A stretch of DNA of 36,956 bases from Aduncisulcus paluster. Lineage: Eukaryota. The position numbers and the translations under genes were made by a program. The stretch covers positions 1 through 36,956 of the forward strand of contig BQXS01012585.1 in NCBI GenBank assembly GCA_024181965.1, written 5' to 3'. This document shows, piece by piece, positions 10,966 through 25,944 of the stretch (position 1 is its first letter; every line of letters starts with the position of its first letter). The notes under the pieces are model-generated. The model had not been told where the DNA came from. It did not search any database and saw nothing but the letters and a program-made list of their open reading frames with translations.

Positions 10966-13900
10966 TCATAACAACACAGCTCCTTCAATGTACGCATGTG
11001 TGATATAGCCAACATATACTATTGACACTTGCATATTGAAAGAAAGGGTCTTTACACAACTGCCGAAAGCATAAACGCATTTATCCATAACGCAATCAAG
11101 AATTCCGCTGTTCGAGATAATTCTAACAATTTCAGCAGCATCGATGGTCGGCAGGAAAAACGGTCTTCCATACCATAGACACTGTAAAGGTACAAGGGAC
11201 ATGAGTTCATAATGATATGGATGGAGCGCTTCACAGGGAAATTGCATTCCACGGCCAAGAGAACTATTCGCAACGGCCTCACAAATAGCTGGTGTGGCAA
11301 TATTTTGGAGGTATTTACACAAAGGAGCATGGAATTTCATTTTGGGCTGAAACACCATGTTTTGACGGTATGATACCATCAACTTGGTAAGCGAATGTGA
11401 CAACGCACGACTCAGTTCTCTATCTGTCGTTGTCATGAAATATGATCGCTTTTGGAGAGCAAATGAGGGAGGACACCACCAATAAAAAGGAGATGAGAGT
11501 GGAAGAATACCTCCAGAGCACTTATTTTGCATCCCTCGTCCAACTCGATTCCGATGCATGTTCTCGTATTTCTTTGTGGCATCAGTGAGCGACCTAATGA
11601 TTTGATTTGGATATCCGAGTAACCAGTCATTCAGATCATCAACGTCGAATCGGATCTCACCGATCAAATCATATTTCTGACGATTGACATACACTTGCTT
11701 ATGATTAAACAAACATCCAACACGCTTGAAGGGGAATTGGGGACTGTGAGTGTTGATAAAGGGCAAACCAATGTCCAAATGCCAATGAAGAACTTCACAG
11801 GAGGAAGACAACGTTAAGGAAGGAGCTTCTTTCGCAGGGGTTGTCACAACACGGCCAACAACCGTCCGGCGGAAGTTTCGAAGTTCGGTTGACGCCTGTA
11901 AATATGCCGTACGAATGTCATGGAAAGGAAGTCCAGAAAACAGAGATTTGTCAGACCGTACACCGTGGAGATCGCCGGAAGATGTGTTTGCTGCCAACTG
12001 TTTTGACTTACGAGGACTCAAATGGAATGCAAATTCACCGATATTTCCACTCAAATCAAGCCGTTTCACTTCACTGATTTCACTATCATCATCCGAATCC
12101 TCGAGATCGTGTCCCCCATGTCTTGAACGTATTTTCCCATGCTTGGACACACCTCCTTTCCCTCGCATATGCTTAATGCACGAAGCCCTCCCCTTCTCGA
12201 AGTCTTCCCATCCGTACCCAATCCTCATGCCACCTTTCCCATCCACAATCTCCTTCATGTGTCTCATATTGATGGAATATTCGGATATATACGTGAGNNN
12301 NNNNNNNNNNNNNNNNNCTGTTTTGACTTACGAGGACTCAAATGGAATGCAAATTCACCGATATTTCCACTCAAATCAAGCCGTTTCACTTCACTGATTT
12401 CACTATCATCATCCGAATCCTCGAGATCGTGTCCCCCATGTCTTGAACGTATTTTCCCATGCTTGGACACACCTCCTTTCCCTCGCATATGCTTAATGCA
12501 CGAAGCCCTCCCCTTCTCGAAGTCTTCCCATCCGTACCCAATCCTCATGCCACCTTTCCCATCCACAATCTCCTTCATGTGTCTCATATTGATGGAATAT
12601 TCGGATATATACGTGAGATAGGACAACATAAACGTGGGGTCAGAGCTTACAACAGATGGACGCGAGGCAGCAAGAGGGAAAGGGGAAGTAATGAAACACA
12701 TTCGACGCCAGACCTTATCATTGGGAAAAGTAACGCTTGACATACGTCTTAAAGCTGGTAACCGTTCAGTACGAGTCATCGGGAACGAACGGATATCGAT
12801 CTGGGTCTTTGCAATTCCGTTGCGTTGACCTGATGATAACTGTCCTGGTTTAGGAAGAACCAAATCTTTAAACCCAGAACCAGAAACACCATCGAGCATC
12901 ATACCTCCTGATCTATTTATAGAACCTCCTGATCTATTTATAGAACCTGCGGCATCAGGAATAACCCCGGCAGAGGAAGTCGTTGTCAGAGGCAGGGATT
13001 GATGATGAAGATCGGTGTCTGTTGTTAGAGAACTGTCCATGACAACTGTGGGATTGGAAGTAAGGGGTTGTTCAGATGTACCGGCAGAAGTACCGGCAGA
13101 AGTACCGGCAGAAGTACCGGCAGAAGTACCGGCAGAAGTACCGGTAGGATCTGTCGATGATGATGGAGGGATACCATTCATCGTATTGCGTTCCAATTCT
13201 TTTAATCTCTCTTTCTCTTCAGCCATAATGGTTTGGAATGGAGACATCATCTTTGCTGAGGCAGCATTAGGTAATTGCAATGATTTCTTTGGTTGTTTTT
13301 CTTCGCCTTCTTTTTTATAATCTCTTCTTTCTGCATCTTTCTTGCGCTGTTTACGTGATTTTTTCGAGGCAGAAGCATCGCCCCCAGATTCTCCAGTTTT
13401 CCGATGAAACACAGCTCTTTGCAAATGACTCGGCAAAAAAGATTCTTCAATCTCCAATATTTCTTCCCGTGGTCTATGAATATTTTTTTGCCACCCGCCT
13501 TCATCCTCATCATCTCTCTTATCGAAATTACTCAATTCCTCAGAGATGGAGGAGAGTTCTTCCTTCGAACGGGGCGGCTGGAGCAAAGCAGGTTTCTTGA
13601 TGGGTTTTGAATGTTTATGCATCGAGTAAGCCTGTAATTCTTCTTCTCCCAATGAAGCATCGATTGTAGATATTTTACCGCCCTTTTTCCTTTCCCATTC
13701 TTTCTGTTTTCTTCTGTAGCGACCTCTAAGGAGATGTCCACCGCCACAGACAGCTCCTTTATATAAAAGACACCCATCAATACACTCTCCCATCTCACTT
13801 TTCATCGATTTCTTGCTTCGATGACGAGTAACAACCCAGCAAGTTGGCTTATTGTTAGAATCGTGACCCAAAGCGACGTAAGCGTCTATTCCAAAACCTA

Positions 13901-16499
13901 AGAACAAAGAACACAGTGTGCATGCCTTTTCAAGCGCATGTCCACGTTTCCGAGCAAAAATGCTCATAGGCGATGAAATCTGCAGGGAAGGGGGTGGAAT
14001 GGATTCGTGAGGAGCATAAGGAAATTCATCGTGGTTGCGAATTAATCGCATAATAAATGCAGCCTCCATTGGGGAAGATAGGGAGGAAACTACAGGTCTG
14101 ACAAAAGCACAGGCAGGCCGAAAGACCCCAAACTCATCACACAACACGAGACAGAAATTCCTCCGTTTCAAAGTATGGCGGAATTGTCTCATATTCTTGT
14201 TATATACCCTGAACAGAGACTGCATTTCTTGTCTCTTTTCCATCAGAGCATGACTCAGCGAGGAAGTGGATCCTGAGTTTGAAATTGTACCAGCCGAGTG
14301 GGAGGTCTGGAGGGTTGGCACAAGAGGACTTGAACCGTAAACAATCTCACCTGAAGGAACAGGATCGATCTTTGCAAACATTGGACTGTGTTCTCTAATT
14401 GCTTCTCGAAATTCAAGCCTTTCCTGCTGTTTTTGGACCATAATTTCGGATTTCTTTTGTAAAGATTCCCTGACAAATTCAATGGGGGACTTGGAGTGTT
14501 TGGATCGCGATTTGGGAAGGTATTCTACAAATGGATTTGAACTTTTAGGTTTGCGAGCTTGTTCTTGAAACAATTCTTCCTCTTTTGTAAGCTCACTCTC
14601 ACCCTTTTCATATTTATAATCTTTAGGAATGGCGGAACTTTTCAATGGAGTGTACGTAGGAAATTCAATTGTCCCTGAGAAGTCTTGATGCTGAGTTGGA
14701 AGATCAGATTGAAGAGCACTATCATCATGACGGCCAGAGGCGGTACCAACACTTCCCCCGCCGGCAGAACCACCGGCAGAACCTCCGGCTCCAGATGAGT
14801 TCAGAGGAGGAGCGTGAGATGATCCTTTCAAAGCAGTGAGAGATGTTGATACGACACTTGAATCTGATTCGGTCACATCAATGGTATTTTCTATCTTTGA
14901 CAACGAAGATGAAGTGATTATTTTATCGATTGAAGCTCCAGATCCTCTTCTTTGTGCTTTTAGATGCCCATGTTTGTTACTTTTCCCCTTTTTCCCTTTC
15001 TTCCCTTTGCCTCCCTTATGACTGTTTTTACCCGTATCTTTGGCTCCTTTTGATCCTGATAATGACGACCCCACAGTTTCATCTTCACTATTAACAGGGA
15101 GATCAAAGCTCAAAATTGGATGGCCTTGACTATCCACAAAACTGTCTCCGTGGTGTTCACCATCAAAACCATGTTTCCTTGTTTCCTTGTCTTGGACAAC
15201 ACGCATCCACTCGTCAATGGAGATTTTGTGATCAATATGGAGGGTACTGTTTCGTTGCGAGGTGGCCAGTTCACGACGTCTTGCCGTGTTGATGCCGCCT
15301 AACTCATCAAGGGATCCATACATCGATGATAACGAGTGCATTAGAGGTGGATTGCGTTGTTTCTTTCTTCTTTTGAGCTCTTTCTCTCTCTCAAGAGCAA
15401 CCTGACTGTCAATCGAGTGGACTAAATGTTGAGCAATGTTGAAATCGGTCTCAATCTTCTTTCTATGCCTCTCGAAGAAAATATCTTGATCAAAACAGGT
15501 CCAGCAAGCAACGTTAGTATTGCTGCAACGGACAGAAACTTCCATAACGACGTCTGCACATCCATATGGCAACAAAAATGGAGAAGTCAGGAACATGGTG
15601 TGCGTTGACGTGTGGGGAGCATGGGCCAAAGCAGATAAAAGCGGTAAATGACAAGTTCCAATGAGTTCGCTGAAGGCACCAGAGGAGGTCGAGATAAGAT
15701 CATGCACAGAGATGTTCAAATATTGCGATTGCAGCCATATCATCAAGTCACTCACGTTGTCCGTGGGGAAATGAACTCTCATCTTCGAAGTTAAGCGAGG
15801 GAAAATCAGATTGGCATGACGAGCCTGGACATCGCGAATGACAGGCGTTTGAGTACGGGTGTATCCACAAGAAAGCCGGAAAAAGGGACTAATTTTACCC
15901 ATACTAATTCCAGACAATGGCATATATTTAGGTCTGCAGAAAAAGTTCAAGTTACCAACACTTTGAATCGTAACAACCAAATCAGTCCCACAAAACCCAT
16001 TTGGATCTAAAACACTCTTTTCTTTATCGTTCACATCATCATATAGTTTCTGGGCTTCAGAGAATTTGGATAAAAAGCCTTGGACTGTTAGGCTTTCGGT
16101 ACCCTTTGGGAAAAAATGCTTTAGTGTCGAGTTCACATCTTGGATTTGGAACCCTGTTTTACCTGTTTGTAAAATCCTGGCGAAAGTTTCTTCATCAAGC
16201 GCCCGGCCATATTTCTTCTTGAAATGGTCAAAAGCTCTGCGTGCTGCATCTCTCTTACCTTCGAGTATTTTTTCATAGTCTCCAATGAAAACAAGAAAGT
16301 CTTCAAAATCAAGACGAAAATCTCCATGCCTATCGTACATTTTAACATAAGTTTGAGCCTGTTCATGAGTTTCAAAGGGTCCAAAGAATGGTAACAATCT
16401 AAAGAGATCTGCCGCACCAATTTTACCATCACTTGAGGTTGTAAATTGCCGAAAAATCTCTTTAAACGAGCGAACCTGAAATTCTGATAAATGAGACAT
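10966..16499 (-). CDS. EF-hand + C2 + transglutaminase-like CEP76/CC2D2A-family basal-body protein (one ~1737-aa gene after collapsing the gap duplication)
   Basis: EF loops TTSSDGKIGAADL and DRHGDFRLDFEDF; C2-like strands (LVVTIQSVGNL..PFFRL..LNISVHD..LIGTCHLPL); CEP76-like GHALEKACTLCSLFLGFGIDAYVALG..CWVVT and FPFKRVGCLFNHKQVYVNRQ. The two ORF-track entries share identical duplicated sequence around the N gap. Confidence 0.8.
11998..12617. repeat. Exact 300-bp duplication (11998-12297 = 12318-12617) around a 20-N gap; unmerged contig overlap
   Basis: Identical sequence on both sides of the N run 12298-12317; collapsing it restores one reading frame. Confidence 0.92.
12904..12948. repeat. 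Coding 21-bp tandem repeat x2 (GSINRSG)
   Basis: CCTCCTGATCTATTTATAGAA occurs twice in tandem. Confidence 0.85.
13078..13144. repeat. Coding 12-bp minisatellite GTACCGGCAGAA x5.5 (GTSA repeats)
   Basis: Perfect tandem copies read directly from the sequence. Confidence 0.95.
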
Positions 16500-16663
16500 G
16501 TAATTCTAAAAGTAAAAGAATATATTCAAATAATATGGTTTAGTTAGGTAAAATAAAAGGAATTGATAACAATGAATATTGAATAATATTCTTATATTCA
16601 ATCAAAAAGACAAAACAAAATCAGGTGGAAGCAAAAATGCAGAGAATATAAATTTATGATCAT

Positions 16664-17275
16664 TTATTTGCTTAATGATGATGATATTTCTCGTTTGAAA
16701 CTTTCAACCAATGCTTTAGCTCTTTTCCCGATGGATTTGATGGAAGACTGAGAAAACTCCGATAGCTCCCCTCCAATCAATTTAAATTCTCCTTGAACAT
16801 ATCCACACACACAACTATATGTTTTATCACTTTCTACGTCGGATTCTTCTTCTTTCGGAGAAGGATTTGGAAGTATAGCAATTGGAAATCCCTTCATTTC
16901 AACACCAGCATCTATGAGAGCAAGGGAAACTGAATTAAATATGTGATCAAGCCTTCGCTCTCCCATTTCTATTATGTCAATTCTGATTGATATTTCTGAT
17001 CTAGGATATCTATCCAGCATAACTATGATTGAAAACATTTTTTCAATGAACAAACTGACATCTTCATTGGCCTTTTCAATTTCTTTTTCCATATCTAATC
17101 CAGAATATAACGTGTGATATGAAGAACACGCAATAATTCCCATATTAACTGAATCTATCTTTTTTATACTCGGAAACGGGCCAGTAACAGAGGTAATAAC
17201 TTTAGTCGAATCGGTTTCATAATAACATGAACCTGAAGCTCTATTATTTACGTTTAATTTAAAAGACAACTTCAT
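16664..17275 (-). CDS. Exosome core RNase PH-family subunit (Rrp41/Mtr3/Rrp46-like)
   Basis: RASGSCYYETDSTKVITSVTGP and LDRYPRSEISIRIDIIE..FNSVSLALIDAGVEMK match RNase PH domain signatures. First ATG is at 17275; the paralog cannot be assigned. Confidence 0.85.
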   Translation of the reverse strand: MKLSFKLNVNNRASGSCYYETDSTKVITSVTGPFPSIKKIDSVNMGIIACSSYHTLYSGLDMEKEIEKANEDVSLFIEKMFSIIVMLDRYPRSEISIRIDIIEMGERRLDHIFNSVSLALIDAGVEMKGFPIAILPNPSPKEEESDVESDKTYSCVCGYVQGEFKLIGGELSEFSQSSIKSIGKRAKALVESFKREISSSLSK

Positions 17276-17314
17276 ATTTGTGTCCAAAACACTGATTTAT
17301 TGAGAGATGAATTT

Positions 17315-18249
17315 TTTTTGCGACTATGTCGCACTGCGACCTTTTCAATATTCTAAAAACGTTAAAATTAATATCCTGTGATACCCTTATTCATTTATTA
17401 TTTTTTTATTTTTATCTGCTTGCTTAATAGCAAACTTGATGAATCCAAAATTCTTACACGCGGGAATGTGTATATTTACAATAGATCCATATCATGAGAA
17501 GATATCTCTCAGTAAATCTTCAGTTTTATCGCCAATTCCAAAAATAAATAATGTCTGGGGAGTGATTTTGGTTGGAGGCGAAGATACGCAACTCTAACAG
17601 AACTCTAAAAACCATTCTCTCTTGCTTCCATGGTCATAGCACCATTTCATATGATCGTAAAGAGCACATATCATTGGATTTTTGGGATAGAAATGCAAGG
17701 ATAATAGATACACGAGATGAGCCCACGGATCGAACTCCAAGGTCATTTCTAGAATGCCCTGAGATGCCGGGGAAGGCTATAAAAAGGCCTTTTCAGCTAC
17801 AGGAAAAGGACATCCAGCAACACCCGCAGTAAGAAAGGTTCCAAGAATAATGTCACATGTTGTAAAGAATATGGGTGGGATATTTATCAAAGTTGACGAA
17901 TATCACACTTCCAAATTATGTCCATGTTGTTACCAAAAACTTAGTACGATGAATCCGAAAACTCGTTTGAGAAAGTGTCCTGGTTGTCACCATGAAGGCC
18001 ACCGTGATTCTTTAGCTGCATTAAATATTGCTAATCTTGGTTATTATGAGTTTCTAGGTATCCCAAGACCTCCAGAATTTTGTTATTCCCAAGATCTTCA
18101 TCATCCTCGGCCACATCCAAGACAAAGACTTTCCTCTGGATTATAATTCTATTTTACCAATTTTACTATTTTTACTCACCGCGTGTTTTCACGATGGTGC
18201 AATTTGAACAATCTTTTTGCATGCTGTCGCTTTGCGACGCATCGCAAAT
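17315..18249 (+). mobile_element. ~935-bp non-autonomous Fanzor/TnpB-bearing element with imperfect inverted ends
   Basis: Left end TTTGCGActatGTCGCActGCGAC; reverse complement of the right end TTTGCGAtgcGTCGCAaaGCGAC. TGAATTT flanks both sides (17308-17314 and 18250-18256). The Fanzor remnant lies inside. Confidence 0.6.
17439..18146 (+). pseudogene. Degenerate Fanzor (eukaryotic TnpB-family RuvC nuclease)
   Basis: RuvC-I VWGV/DFGWRRRYA with a 1-nt frameshift at ~17562-17564; *DAG..FSATGKGHPATP from 17760; RuvC-II IKVDEYHTSKLCPCC (E at 17898); CPGC completing the Zn ribbon; RuvC-III HRDSLAALNI (D at 18006); then GIPRPPEF. Confidence 0.85.
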
Positions 18250-18712
18250 TGAATTTGTTCTTTATTGAGATAACTATAGATATTAAGAAAGTCTTTTAAA
18301 AGATTAAAACCATGAAAAACAACATAATTGCATTCCAAAATAAGATAACCAATCTGAGATATTGAAGAGCCTGGACGACAGAATGAATTTTTCCAGTCAC
18401 AGATTCAGGATCTGTCGACACGGGCTTGTTTGTAAGCTTTCCAAGATTTAAAATGGCTCCAGCGTTAACTATCATGGTACTAATAACAACATTACAAAAT
18501 AAAATTTCAAAATAAGAATAGATTCAATAAATAATAATACAAACTCATATCTCTGTTATACATACAAAAATAAGACAATATCTGATATTTTTGTAAACAT
18601 TTTTCAAGTATAGTTTTAATAATCTGATATTTTGTTCAGTAATTTCTTCAATAGGATCAAATGAGACACTTCAATTTTTTCTCTGTGATGGACGAGACTC
18701 AGTTTGGTGGCA

Positions 18713-20314
18713 ATGTCAGATGGAATAGGGAAAACATTTACGTACCTTGTCGTAAATGGCCATTATACTACCAAAAAATTTAAATTAAAAATCCCTGTTG
18801 CGCTCGTTCCATTCCATTTATATTTTCATCTTGTAAGGCGTTTAACAGCCCGTGCAAAAGTAGTATCAATATATGAAGAAGAGGCAAAAGATATAATTAA
18901 TTCATTTTTGAGGGAGAACGATGTTGATCTTTCAGTTTCTCCAGATACTGAATTCAGATCAAAGGTTAGAGAAGTAATACGGGATCTTCCCCACAATGTT
19001 AAGTCGAGAAGAAAAGATATAGAGATTCGTCCATCAATATATAGTGTTGATTCACTTGATTTTTCCCAGAATCCACAATATCCTTTGTCCCTTCTTGAAC
19101 ATTCCCTGAAATGTTTTCATGATGTTAGTATCTCGGGAAAAGAAGGGCATTCATCAAAGAAATTTAAAGTTACAGTTAATAGAAAAGCCAGAAAGACATT
19201 CTCTGGAGGAAAACCCGATGTTAAACCATCTGGTCACGAACGACACATTGTAACAATGTGTATAAATTATCTAAAGAGTCCAGAGCATCTTCATACCCCA
19301 TTATCGATATATACTCTTCGCTATATGGTTATTTCAGAATATATTAAGAATGTTGGGTGGAATCCAAGACCTCGCTATCTGGATTATCCTTTCCCATTTA
19401 TTACGGAGACTTTTGCTTCATATCCCAATGTAGATATCTTTTGCAGTGAACAAAGCTTTCGCTTCAGACCCAAATACCCGCTATATAAGGCCCCTCAAGT
19501 AGCCAGAGTTGTACCGCTGATTCAGAATGGAATATCGGCCAAAGAGCTCGAAGAAAGTTGCCCATCGACAAAATTGAAGTCCATTATTGCTAAACAAAGT
19601 GTTTGGGCCTTCGAGGAGCCTGGGAATGCTGCTGCAAATTTATTCAGTTTTGTTATGTTTCCCAATGAAGCACAGAGTCTATTTACGAAAGAAGAGTTGA
19701 AAACCGTTGCATTAAGCAAGCGTAGGGCCTCCAGTGACCATCGAAAGCTCTCTGCTCTCCTTAAGAAGAAGAGACCAGGTCAATCGGGTACATTATCCTC
19801 CTCATCCTCCTCATCATCATCCTCTTCCTCCTCCTCTTCAAAAAAACGGTCTGCGTCAAGTATTGGTGGGAGTGACCCGGGATCAAATGGAAATCCCAAT
19901 TCTACCCGTGGGATTGATTCAAGTTCTTCCTCCAGGTCTGAAGAAGATCCTGAGGACTCTAGTGATATGGATGGGAAAGAGGGAGACGATATTCCGGCAA
20001 TCTTGGATGTTGAGTTCGCTTCTGCATATACTCATAAGAAGGACAAACTCAAACCCCCAAGTTTAGTCGAAGAATTGGCACCAAAAGACCTTAGGGATGC
20101 TTGGGACTCCATAGGAGAAGTTAAGCGCATCAATCTACCTATTTTTAGAATCAATCGTGATGAGTTACTTCGGGAACAACGTCAGATTGGGAAAGATTCG
20201 TCAAAACGGAAACATGGTGCCAAATCAACTAAGTGCACAAATGATCATCTAATTAACAAAGATAGCGAAGAAGGAATACTGCTCGAAAGAGAATTTGCTC
20301 AATTTAAAGAGTAA
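18713..20314 (+). CDS. GTF2E2: General transcription factor TFIIE beta subunit (GTF2E2/Tfa2)-like, with N-terminal extension and Ser/acidic insertion
   Basis: CINYLK..PLS, FRFRPKYPL, GISAKELEESCP, DLRDAWDSI and KCTNDHL fall in the same order as recalled TFIIE-beta motifs (YAFKPKYNV, GILLEDIEEALP, EFQKLWRSV, KTHNEHL). First ATG is at 18713. Confidence 0.7.
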   Translation: MSDGIGKTFTYLVVNGHYTTKKFKLKIPVALVPFHLYFHLVRRLTARAKVVSIYEEEAKDIINSFLRENDVDLSVSPDTEFRSKVREVIRDLPHNVKSRRKDIEIRPSIYSVDSLDFSQNPQYPLSLLEHSLKCFHDVSISGKEGHSSKKFKVTVNRKARKTFSGGKPDVKPSGHERHIVTMCINYLKSPEHLHTPLSIYTLRYMVISEYIKNVGWNPRPRYLDYPFPFITETFASYPNVDIFCSEQSFRFRPKYPLYKAPQVARVVPLIQNGISAKELEESCPSTKLKSIIAKQSVWAFEEPGNAAANLFSFVMFPNEAQSLFTKEELKTVALSKRRASSDHRKLSALLKKKRPGQSGTLSSSSSSSSSSSSSSSKKRSASSIGGSDPGSNGNPNSTRGIDSSSSSRSEEDPEDSSDMDGKEGDDIPAILDVEFASAYTHKKDKLKPPSLVEELAPKDLRDAWDSIGEVKRINLPIFRINRDELLREQRQIGKDSSKRKHGAKSTKCTNDHLINKDSEEGILLEREFAQFKE

Positions 20315-24126: not shown

Positions 24127-25029
24127 CTACTGAACAAAAGCTGTTACACTATCGGACCCAATAACGATCTGAGAATCCTCATTATCAGAGAGGGCGAGAT
24201 ATTCTAAGTAACTGAGAGTATTATCAACACCTCCAAGTTCAGCAGAATAATCGGCAATGGACGCAGCATACTGCTTGTTAACAACCCTGTTATAATTAGC
24301 CTTGTTAATGGAATCCTGCAGAACATAGATAGTGGATGTATTGGCATCATTCGCAATCACAGAAGCTTGGGCTGTGGCAGATCCTGTGGAGGTAGCCTGC
24401 TCGGCTTGAGCCAAAGCAATCTTCTGTGTATAGTTGTCCAGCTGTTGCGCCAATTGTTGTCCTTCATCCTTGGCCTCTTCGAAAGCATCAGGAAGATCCT
24501 GTTGAATGATGTTGAAAGCATCAATATTGATATAGAGAGAATCAGACAATCCAGCAGCTAACTCCTCCTTCATTTTTCCACCAATTGAGGAAATGTCATC
24601 AAAAAACTTAGAAGCGTCGTATTGTGCTGCAACATCACGAATAATATCTCTGACACGCAGAAGAAGCAGACTTTCGTAATCCATCAGAGCAATTGGGAAC
24701 AATTTGTTAACATTTTCACTTTGCAAAGAATATTGAACTGTACAGTCCATTTCAAGTTCTAATCCATCTTTGGTTCTTCCAGCAATATTCTTCGATCCAC
24801 TGATATCCAAAGTCTGTTGGGTCATTGGGAATTTGTAGAGAGCCTGGTAAAAACCAATGTAAGCTGGTCCGTTGGTATAAGTTTTCTCGTCAATATCTAG
24901 GGTGAAAACATTGTAACAAACTCCAACGTATCCGAAAGGAACAAATGTAAGAGAGCATGCAGCACAAATACCACCCACAAGTACAGCAACGCCTGCCCAG
25001 ACGAGGATAGCAATGACAAGTTCATTCAT
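24127..25029 (-). CDS. SPFH/Band-7/prohibitin-domain membrane protein
   Basis: N-terminal TM helix, then VPFGYVGV..GP..IG..RTKDGLELEMDCTVQY..IRDVAAQY..LPDAFEEA and an Ala/Gln-rich coiled-coil tail. Confidence 0.88.
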   Translation of the reverse strand: MNELVIAILVWAGVAVLVGGICAACSLTFVPFGYVGVCYNVFTLDIDEKTYTNGPAYIGFYQALYKFPMTQQTLDISGSKNIAGRTKDGLELEMDCTVQYSLQSENVNKLFPIALMDYESLLLLRVRDIIRDVAAQYDASKFFDDISSIGGKMKEELAAGLSDSLYINIDAFNIIQQDLPDAFEEAKDEGQQLAQQLDNYTQKIALAQAEQATSTGSATAQASVIANDANTSTIYVLQDSINKANYNRVVNKQYAASIADYSAELGGVDNTLSYLEYLALSDNEDSQIVIGSDSVTAFVQ

Positions 25030-25628
25030 CTTTTAAATATTTTTTTCACGATAAAATTACAAGAGAAAAACTACAAAGAGAATCGTCTCGAATTTGAAAT
25101 GGGAAAATGGTCGATCTCACATAAATAATAATAAACTAACCGTTATGATAAAATGGATATTATTTTTTTTTAAGGTTTATTTGCACAAAATATCGATTTC
25201 ACAAAATCTGGGTAGAGTATCAAAAATAAAATCAACAATGTCAAAATAAATTCTCAAATTCGCCATAATTCACTTTCTTGCTGTTTTCTATGTTTGGANN
25301 NNNNNNNNNNNNNNNNNNACGCCTGCCCAGACGAGGATAGCAATGACAAGTTCATTCATCTTTTAAATATTTTTTTCACGATAAAATTACAAGAGAAAAA
25401 CTACAAAGAGAATCGTCTCGAATTTGAAATGGGAAAATGGTCGATCTCACATAAATAATAATAAACTAACCGTTATGATAAAATGGATATTATTTTTTTT
25501 TAAGGTTTATTTGCACAAAATATCGATTTCACAAAATCTGGGTAGAGTATCAAAAATAAAATCAACAATGTCAAAATAAATTCTCAAATTCGCCATAATT
25601 CACTTTCTTGCTGTTTTCTATGTTTGGA
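24989..25628. repeat. Exact 310-bp duplication (24989-25298 = 25319-25628) around a 20-N gap; unmerged contig overlap
   Basis: Identical sequence flanks the N run 25299-25318. Confidence 0.92.
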
Positions 25629-25944
25629 TACAAACGGAATATCAGATAGAACATCTTCGAAACAGACTCGTTCATGGTCAATTCCCAGATTATGAAGAAT
25701 GCAAAAAGGTTACAACTCGCTGAAATTAAAACCGTTCCAGGTTACTCTCTGAATTGCGTCATGTGGTGATTCTCCACGCTAATTCGGAGTTCGAAATGTA
25801 TTTTTCTCCCTCATCGCAAATAGTCGGTTATTTCTACCAGATATATAAATATTGAACTTAAAGAGTTATGAATAGTTAATAGAGTTAATTTCCAATCAAT
25901 ATCAATGCTGAAAGAAATAAACTACAGTTGCACCAAGGCAAAAT

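Follow-up and report, generated by a model that had tools for sequence, protein, structure and literature searches.

Remnant of a Fanzor1-like nuclease gene in a probably dead transposon copy of Aduncisulcus paluster

Fanzor systems and the locus described here

Fanzors are compact eukaryotic RNA-guided nucleases, with solved Fanzor1 proteins from Spizellomyces punctatus (SpuFz, 8GKH), Parasitella (PpFz, 9CF0) and Guillardia (GtFz1, 9CER) and a solved Fanzor2 from mimivirus (L79, or ApmFz2, 9B0L), whilst related bacterial proteins include the TnpB of IS200/IS605 elements (ISDra2, 8BF8/8H1J) and Cas12f. The subject of this report is a locus in Aduncisulcus paluster, which is a free-living fornicate metamonad and a relative of Giardia, in which the 3' remnant of a Fanzor1-like gene lies at positions 17761-18146(+) of contig BQXS01012585.1; the whole stretch analysed, of 36,956 nucleotides, is referred to as the window. 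The remnant forms part of a repeated element of approximately 990 bp, which is very probably a dead transposon copy with an internal deletion, bearing a Fanzor1-like gene for an RNA-guided nuclease. What survives of this gene is its final 129 codons, and with them the alternative glutamate of RuvC-II, the zinc ribbon, RuvC-III and a Fanzor1-type tail.

In a published survey (PMC10530073, Sci Adv 2023), Fanzors are described as having glycine or proline at the canonical RuvC-II glutamate position and an alternative glutamate approximately 45 residues later, and the substitution E467A in ApmFNuc is described as abolishing cleavage, E467 being essential. The same survey places Fanzor2 genes in IS607-like elements, none of which was seen in the present case, and reports that at TnpB/Fanzor loci both the gene's 3' end and the element's right end are overlapped by the guide RNA (PMC10530073). 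It also describes the Fanzor1c genes of Chlamydomonas reinhardtii as multi-copy and as residing in Helitron2, on non-canonical transposons whose terminal inverted repeats are asymmetric and in which a non-coding RNA lies at the gene 3' end (PMC10530073).

The A. paluster family resembles the three solved Fanzor1 proteins in its rearranged RuvC-II, with the glutamate situated in v.DEY.TSK.C, in having a GD..F....KG..P block where the canonical RuvC-II site lies, and in its zinc ribbon, NRD.NAA.NI motif and G..RP..F tail; these three proteins were also the best matches of the family profiles A1 and A3 introduced below. It differs from them in that the window copy represents the last quarter of the protein only, and in that the A. 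paluster subfamily is too divergent to match the solved Fanzor1 proteins directly and carries extra residues (EGYKKA, VPRIMS) inside the glycine-aspartate block.

Membership of the remnant and its family

Under the standard code, 17763-18146(+) forms a frame of 127 codons without a stop, and its translation reads DAGEGYKKAFSATGKGHPATP…VDEYHTSKLCPCC…CPGCHHEGHRDSLAALNI…GIPRPPEF, with CPGC..HRDSLAALNI within; an ATG-started open reading frame (ORF) of 98 amino acids (17850-18146) lies inside it. A sequence-only reading of the window had reported the motifs of this ORF and had extended the same frame upstream to DAG, and both observations were confirmed. Residues 28-89 of the 127-aa frame matched the Pfam family PF07282 (Cas12f1-like TNB) at E=4e-13, with a score of 49.8 bits where the curated cut-off is 26.3. 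When the PDB was searched with the 127-aa remnant, 13 matches were retrieved at E<=1, 11 of which were TnpB, Cas12f or Fanzor proteins and two of which were unrelated zinc fingers, with the mimivirus TnpB-like L79 (Fanzor2, 9b0l) as the top match (E=0.0024). A longer A. paluster protein, P0001 (ADUPG1_012987, 559 aa), is 92% identical across the whole remnant. Given the Pfam match, the identity of 119 of 129 residues to P0001 and the TnpB, Cas12f and Fanzor matches in the PDB, the motif observation is real and far beyond chance. Judged by sequence, the remnant is a member of the TnpB/Cas12f/Fanzor superfamily, as had been proposed when it was called a relic of TnpB/Fanzor type.

The glutamate of VDEYHTS had been put forward as the RuvC-II residue, and it corresponds to the alternative glutamate of Fanzors. 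This residue, E46 of the remnant, pairs without gaps with E467 of the mimivirus Fanzor2 (9b0l), and its counterpart in P0001, E476, forms an invariant column in the 14-sequence family alignment. E476 lies 46 residues past G430, which takes the canonical RuvC-II position of P0001 in a nearly invariant column of the same alignment; the window codon equivalent to G430 sits on the breakpoint described below and reads TGA. Since E46 is aligned to E467 and E476 is invariant, the glutamate of VDEYHTS is the right catalytic one for a Fanzor.

The remaining motifs of the remnant are similarly well represented in the family. For RuvC-III (RD..A.NI), residues R512, D513, N519 and I520 of P0001 are invariant among the 14 aligned sequences, and HRDSLAALNI aligns to DRDENAAKNI and DRDENAALNI of Fanzor2 and TnpB. 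Three cysteine columns of the zinc ribbon are invariant in the family alignment, the spacing being the canonical CxxC...CxxC in the remnant and CxxC...CxxxC in P0001. Both GD..F...KG..P, which the window copy retains from the D of GDAG on, and the C-terminal G..RP..F are conserved across the 14 sequences and aligned to SpuFz and PpFz. The tail aligns to GHGRPEVFSR in SpuFz and to KQRPPLFSR in PpFz, and P534 of P0001 is nearly invariant.

In the PDB, the mixed family profile A1 matched SpuFz (4e-29), PpFz (1e-20) and GtFz1 (4e-17), followed by Fanzor2 (1e-9) and, more weakly, TnpB and Cas12f, and its alignment to SpuFz takes in a REC-like region at the N-terminus as well as the GD block and the tail with RP..F. 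Profile A3, built from twelve intermediates, matched SpuFz (1.8e-34), GtFz1 (1e-26), PpFz (5e-22) and Fanzor2 (1.8e-10), whilst A2, the profile of A. paluster sequences only, aligned to A3 in hhalign with a probability of 99.8% (E=4e-29, 157 columns). The family therefore appears Fanzor1-like solely by way of intermediates, the link running transitively from A2 to A3 and from there to the solved Fanzor1 proteins. The intermediates are 613-741 aa in length, as against 559 aa for the shorter P0001. It had been suggested from the sequence alone that the GD..F...G..P and G..RP..F motifs favour Fanzor1; their conservation and their alignment to SpuFz and PpFz bear this out, whilst membership would follow through the intermediates and not directly.

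In the direct PDB search of the remnant, the top match was Fanzor2 (E=0.0024), the mimivirus protein, with E467, the zinc ribbon and RuvC-III all aligned. Fanzor2 differs, however, in that profile matches to it are approximately 20 orders of magnitude weaker than those to Fanzor1, and in that the alignment stops at residue 513 of the 520-residue chain, so that it has no G..RP..F tail. Bacterial TnpB and Cas12f share with the locus the TNB zinc ribbon, RuvC-III and the fold of the C-terminal half of P0001; here, in contrast, the host is eukaryotic and the RuvC-II glutamate rearranged, the remnant matches these proteins at E 0.1-0.6 only, and no TnpA-like gene was found.

The check by structure prediction that the sequence-only reading had envisaged was carried out on P0001. 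The AlphaFold2 model had a mean pLDDT of 52.7 and a pTM of 0.40, with the C-terminal half better, and Foldseek returned 44 matches at E<=0.001, headed by Cas12f, SpuFz and TnpB, with TM values of 0.2-0.3; the fold of the C-terminal half matched Cas12f, TnpB and SpuFz at E 3e-8 to 3e-4. As a predicted structure, the P0001 model confirms the superfamily only, Fanzor1 and Cas12f not being separable by it.

Breakpoint and missing part of the gene

The features of the element and of its left flank are listed below by position in the window, strand and description.

17307-17430, forward: left-terminal very high-copy repeat segment; contig matches of other copies begin at 17306 or 17309
17320-17332 and 17328-17340, forward, in the left segment: overlapping palindromes GCGACTATGTCGC and GTCGCACTGCGAC, 3' of a T8 run
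17431-17760, forward: middle segment, a low-copy repeat containing the supposed RuvC-I string; depth 4-7x that of the flanks in 17491-17733
17761-18146, forward: 3' remnant of the Fanzor1-like gene, equal to P0001 residues 431-559 and the stop codon; PF07282, 92% identity
17898-17900, forward: codon of the alternative RuvC-II glutamate (E46, VDEYHTS); aligned to E467 of 9b0l
17919-17987, forward: zinc ribbon (TNB), CPCC at 17919-17930 and CPGC at 17976-17987; by motif positions, with Pfam TNB on residues 28-89
18000-18032, forward: RuvC-III HRDSLAALNI, D82 codon at 18006-18008; invariant family columns
18057-18080, forward: C-terminal GIPRPPEF (G..RP..F), common to solved Fanzor1 proteins
18147-18296, forward: 3' non-coding right end, a candidate fRNA/omegaRNA scaffold or transposon end; depth 20-26x that of the flanks up to ~18300
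18177-18199 and 18206-18260, forward, in the right end: hairpins, the latter holding GTCGCTTTGCGAC (18226-18238)
16664-17296, reverse: host gene with an RNase PH domain, outside the element; PF01138, E=7e-18

The boundary of the left segment near 17430 was inferred from bin depths and from loose contig ends at 17429/17430.

In tblastn searches of the window, P0001 gave a single significant match, with residues 431-559 on 17763-18143, 119 of 129 positions identical (92%) and two one-codon gaps. Residues 1-430, which include the N-terminal WED/REC half that binds guide RNA, had no counterpart in the window, in agreement with the earlier observation that the N-terminal part is absent. A total of 23 of the 31 relatives matched the window at E<=1e-3, every match falling within 17763-18143, and the sequence upstream of 17761 yielded only chance matches to the 31 (tblastn, E>=0.02). 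The 14-member family profile scored -3.5 bits at best on the three forward frames of 17300-17790, and Pfam gave no match at E<=1 on the upstream frames 17382-17597 and 17566-17832. Contigs of other copies match from 17761 on, and before it they read GCTAATTTTCTTTTGGCATACG, encoding ANFLLAYG, the residues that precede D431 in P0001; at the same place the window has unrelated sequence, with TGA at 17760-17762.

An intron at the breakpoint was rejected, as no AG precedes 17761, which is thus not a splice acceptor. Approximately 460 bp lie between the remnant and the RNase PH-domain gene that ends at 17296, leaving no room for the 430 missing codons. As the homology stops sharply, other copies carry true coding sequence there and there is no room upstream, the copy was cut at 17761, and on these comparisons residues 1-430 of 559 (77% of the gene) are to be regarded as missing rather than scrambled. 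With the WED/REC half, RuvC-I and the helical insertion gone, no nuclease can come from the window copy. The remnant is an ordinary transposon fossil and is non-functional.

The sequence-only reading had begun the relic at 17439, had placed a frameshifted RuvC-I at 17553-17572 and had held all three RuvC motifs to be recoverable, which would amount to a frameshifted but essentially complete RuvC domain, with RuvC-I, RuvC-II and RuvC-III from one gene copy. The letters GTCTGGGGAGTGATTTTGGT are indeed present there and are readable as VWGV/DFG, a G-V-D-F-G-like string, with one base skipped, and such strings are uncommon: with both strands counted, a loose form of it matches six times in the 36,956 bases of the window, and it occurs in 22 of 5000 shuffles of 17439-17762. 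The approximately 113 codons from the string to VDEY would presumably also suit a bacterial TnpB. The string was, however, picked post hoc with a free frameshift and has no similarity to the family, in which RuvC-I reads DPG with conserved neighbours, not DFG, and in which the distance from RuvC-I to GDAG is 134 residues (P0001) as against approximately 66 codons for the window string. None of the 31 relatives is similar upstream of 17761 and the profile score there is negative, whilst the identity falls from 92% to nothing within one codon and the other copies differ before 17761. A complete domain is extremely improbable on this evidence. The RuvC-I at 17553-17572 was rejected on its motif, its spacing and the lack of any similar relative nearby; RuvC-I is absent from a copy cut at 17761, and position 17439 marks nothing, the homology beginning at 17761.

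An assembly artefact would account for the breakpoint differently, the 17760/17761 junction and the ~1-kb mosaic having arisen from joined collapsed repeats and the real locus holding a different element, a full-length one or none. The published A. paluster draft (29.4 Mb, N50 4.6 kb, 39.1% GC) is short-read only (PMC9933649), the region is repetitive, and the window has two N gaps, with a duplicated block across one of them. Contigs of an independent assembler, from two runs of one sample (X1 and X2), nevertheless match exactly 17696-17789 (X1, depth 1116, near single-copy) and 17696-17790 (X2), so spanning the junction and extending 29-30 letters to its right, and long single-copy contigs enter both ends of the element (16600-17352; 18296 on), which renders such an artefact improbable.

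The remnant could also be a live short gene, in which the 98-aa ORF 17850-18146, with zinc ribbon and RuvC-III, is expressed as a domesticated nucleic-acid-binding protein or as a regulator of an intact nuclease. All motif residues are kept in the 127 open codons, the zinc ribbon is the canonical CxxC...CxxC where P0001 has CxxC...CxxxC, and contigs of run X2, which we guess to be RNA, cover the region; that X2 is RNA is a guess, though, and its contigs may stem from other copies. X2 does not cover 18301-18786, a gap to which no weight was given. The differences from other copies, three synonymous and ten non-synonymous, are as expected without selection, no protein of similar length was found, and a split RuvC fold that lacks RuvC-I cannot cleave. 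We consider an expressed short gene very improbable.

The repeated element and its ends

The remnant is embedded in sequence that is repeated elsewhere. Long contigs with a depth of approximately 1,250 cover 16600-17352 and 18296 onward, and 308 X1 contigs map to 2.4 kb, in pieces of approximately 90 nt between 17352 and 18296. The summed depth in 17329-17409 is 288,196 versus approximately 1,260 in the flanks (~230x), and relative to the same flanks it is 4-7x in 17491-17733 and 13-28x in 17734-18300; the matches of other copies begin at 17306 or 17309, and no extra contig extends past ~18300. As summed depth is not copy number, these figures were read only as indicating a multi-copy repeat of approximately 990 bp with boundaries near 17307 and 18296. 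No further copy of the element was found within the window.

The left ~110 nt (17309-17430) has ten times the depth of the Fanzor coding part, and positions 17341 and 17378 are T and A, respectively, in nearly all other copies. This stretch may represent a short repeat in its own right, present in great abundance, or else the end piece of a family of miniature elements.

The pattern GTCGC-N3-GCGAC occurs twice in the 36,956 bases, once near each end of the element (17328-17340 and 18226-18238), where 0.19 occurrences would be expected and none of 100 shuffles had two or more. As a DNA hairpin the left palindrome has a z of -2.6. At the right end, the RNA fold of 18100-18300, computed on the single sequence, has a z of -4.58, with none of 200 shuffles as stable, and the main hairpin at 18206-18260 a z of -4.9. 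That the element has a palindromic hairpin in sub-terminal position at either end recalls, as we take it, the ends of IS200/IS605 or Helitron-type elements.

Compared with other copies, the 384-nt coding remnant has 13 variable sites and the 154-nt tail one, a weak hint that the 3' tail is better kept than the coding remnant. Three of the 13 sites in the remnant are synonymous and ten non-synonymous, where a synonymous fraction of 0.22 is expected; the divergence of the remnant from other copies is neutral-looking and shows no sign of selection.

The dead, internally deleted transposon copy that we favour may be a non-autonomous derivative in which the two transposon ends are preserved. Its 3' end, if TnpB/Fanzor loci are taken as a guide, would be a candidate guide-RNA scaffold, usable in trans by the protein of an intact copy, and the nuclease would be supplied by intact or near-intact copies such as P0001. 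A broader scenario may be proposed, albeit as an unlikely one, in which A. paluster hosts a hitherto undescribed and highly divergent Fanzor1-like lineage, carried by a transposon that has sub-terminal GTCGC-N3-GCGAC hairpins for ends and not classical inverted repeats. Single-strand transposition of HUH type would be suggested by the resemblance of the hairpin ends to IS200/IS605 or Helitron ends; derivatives of ~1 kb would keep the ends and the guide-RNA module and would have been amplified, the ~110-nt left end to some two hundred copies, and would be served in trans by a few intact copies. The hairpin-bearing ends are a lead on the transposition machinery that carries Fanzor1-like genes.

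Several results weigh against the interpretation as a dead Fanzor1-like transposon copy. In searches of the PDB, P0001 alone gave no Fanzor match and one unrelated match (E=0.19), and the A. paluster-only profile A2 gave marginal TnpB/Cas12f matches only (E 0.015-0.2). The tool asks for 31 letters to either side of 17760/17761, which no contig attains, the best having 29-30 on the right, so that a small probability of a mis-join in the short-read assembly is left; there is likewise a small one of a short expressed product, as the 127 codons of the remaining frame contain no stop. The contig depths derive from two runs of a single sample, possibly the source of the window itself, and the tool carries a warning that summed depth is not copy number. 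Neither a target-site duplication nor a transposase was identified. When the end regions were compared as inverted or direct repeats, the likeness was non-significant, 41 of 300 shuffles scoring as well; this includes the inverted resemblance of the left terminus to the right-end sub-terminal stretch, considered in comparison with the C. reinhardtii Helitron2. Rfam gave no matches at E<=1 on 17200-18450, and the guide-RNA role is by analogy only.

A repeat listing of the window contained no convincing terminal pair. TTTATTGAGA, which is directly repeated over 10 nt at 17296-17305 and 18261-18270, was a candidate for a target duplication and was dropped, as other copies still match to ~18296-18300.

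Relatives and genomic context

The prediction that relatives exist elsewhere in the genome was borne out by P0001, from the same organism, which has a RuvC-I of GIDPG (294-298) together with YGDAG (429-433), VDEYHTS (474-480), the zinc ribbon and HRDS (511-514), and to which UniRef has automatically given the label of a Cas12f1-like TNB domain protein. When longer proteins were sought, two were returned, both from A. paluster: P0001 and P0002 (ADUPG1_009729), the latter a chimeric gene model of 267 aa in which residues 218-267 are another gene-tail remnant, 64-67% identical. Truncated tails such as that of the window copy thus seem, by sequence, to recur in the A. paluster genome. Proteins about as long as the remnant were also sought; one unscored candidate was obtained and none was found.

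An exhaustive HMMER search with P0001 retrieved 29 proteins at E<=0.001. Ten of these were looked up, four being clusters of A. paluster gene models or transcripts and six originating from Logan or JGI assemblies. P0001 was the only annotated gene model to extend from RuvC-I to the C-terminus (search at 90% clustering); for P0003 (575 aa), the match is limited to its N-terminal 317 residues and covers 59% of P0001. A metagenome scan with P0001 gave 208 pattern matches and no relatives.

P0006 and P0030, from the A. paluster transcriptome and genome, represent a second Fanzor-like subfamily, which is divergent and shows 48% identity to the window remnant. A transcriptome assembly (EukProt entry) is the source of one member, so that transcription apparently occurs for at least one member of the family.

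In P0010 (ADUPG1_006463, partial, 1846 aa), residues 810-1099 are Fanzor-like and 34% identical to residues 183-441 of P0001. Its residues 1332-1420 gave a sub-threshold match to the catalytic end of Phage_integrase (E=0.041; 14.1 bits, the cut-off being 27.1), and a PDB search with P0010 gave no match. P0010 may reflect a Crypton-type tyrosine recombinase partner, or a fusion in the gene model; the Crypton link was dropped, the integrase match being sub-threshold and without PDB support.

When the family alignment was compared with IMG/VR viral contigs, 29 loci were obtained, with 21-26% identity over the RuvC/zinc-ribbon half and mostly from giant-virus bins; two of these loci are on one 911-kb contig.

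In the library searched, no paper linked Fanzor with Metamonada or Aduncisulcus, and the main texts of two Fanzor surveys mention no metamonad, though their supplementary tables may list one. The remnant flags a little-studied Fanzor1-like family in a metamonad lineage. Because this family is too divergent for direct matches to the solved Fanzor1 proteins, the sequence space known for compact RNA-guided nucleases of eukaryotes becomes wider with it.

The left end of the element lies approximately 33 bp upstream of the codon at which the RNase PH-domain gene is likely to start (17274-17307), which places the insertion in the putative promoter region of that gene. The window is AT-rich, with a GC content of 0.30-0.46 per kb, and has long ORFs of eukaryotic style. 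One of these, of 1413 aa at 12264-16505(-), has a CEP76 peptidase-like domain (E=7e-12), weak EF-hands and low-complexity runs such as repeated GTSA, and contains an N gap at 12298-12317. At the other N gap (25299-25318; region 24990-25630), the sequence preceding the gap is repeated exactly after it (24991-25298 versus 25320 onward), and this duplicated block is a typical scaffolding duplication artefact.

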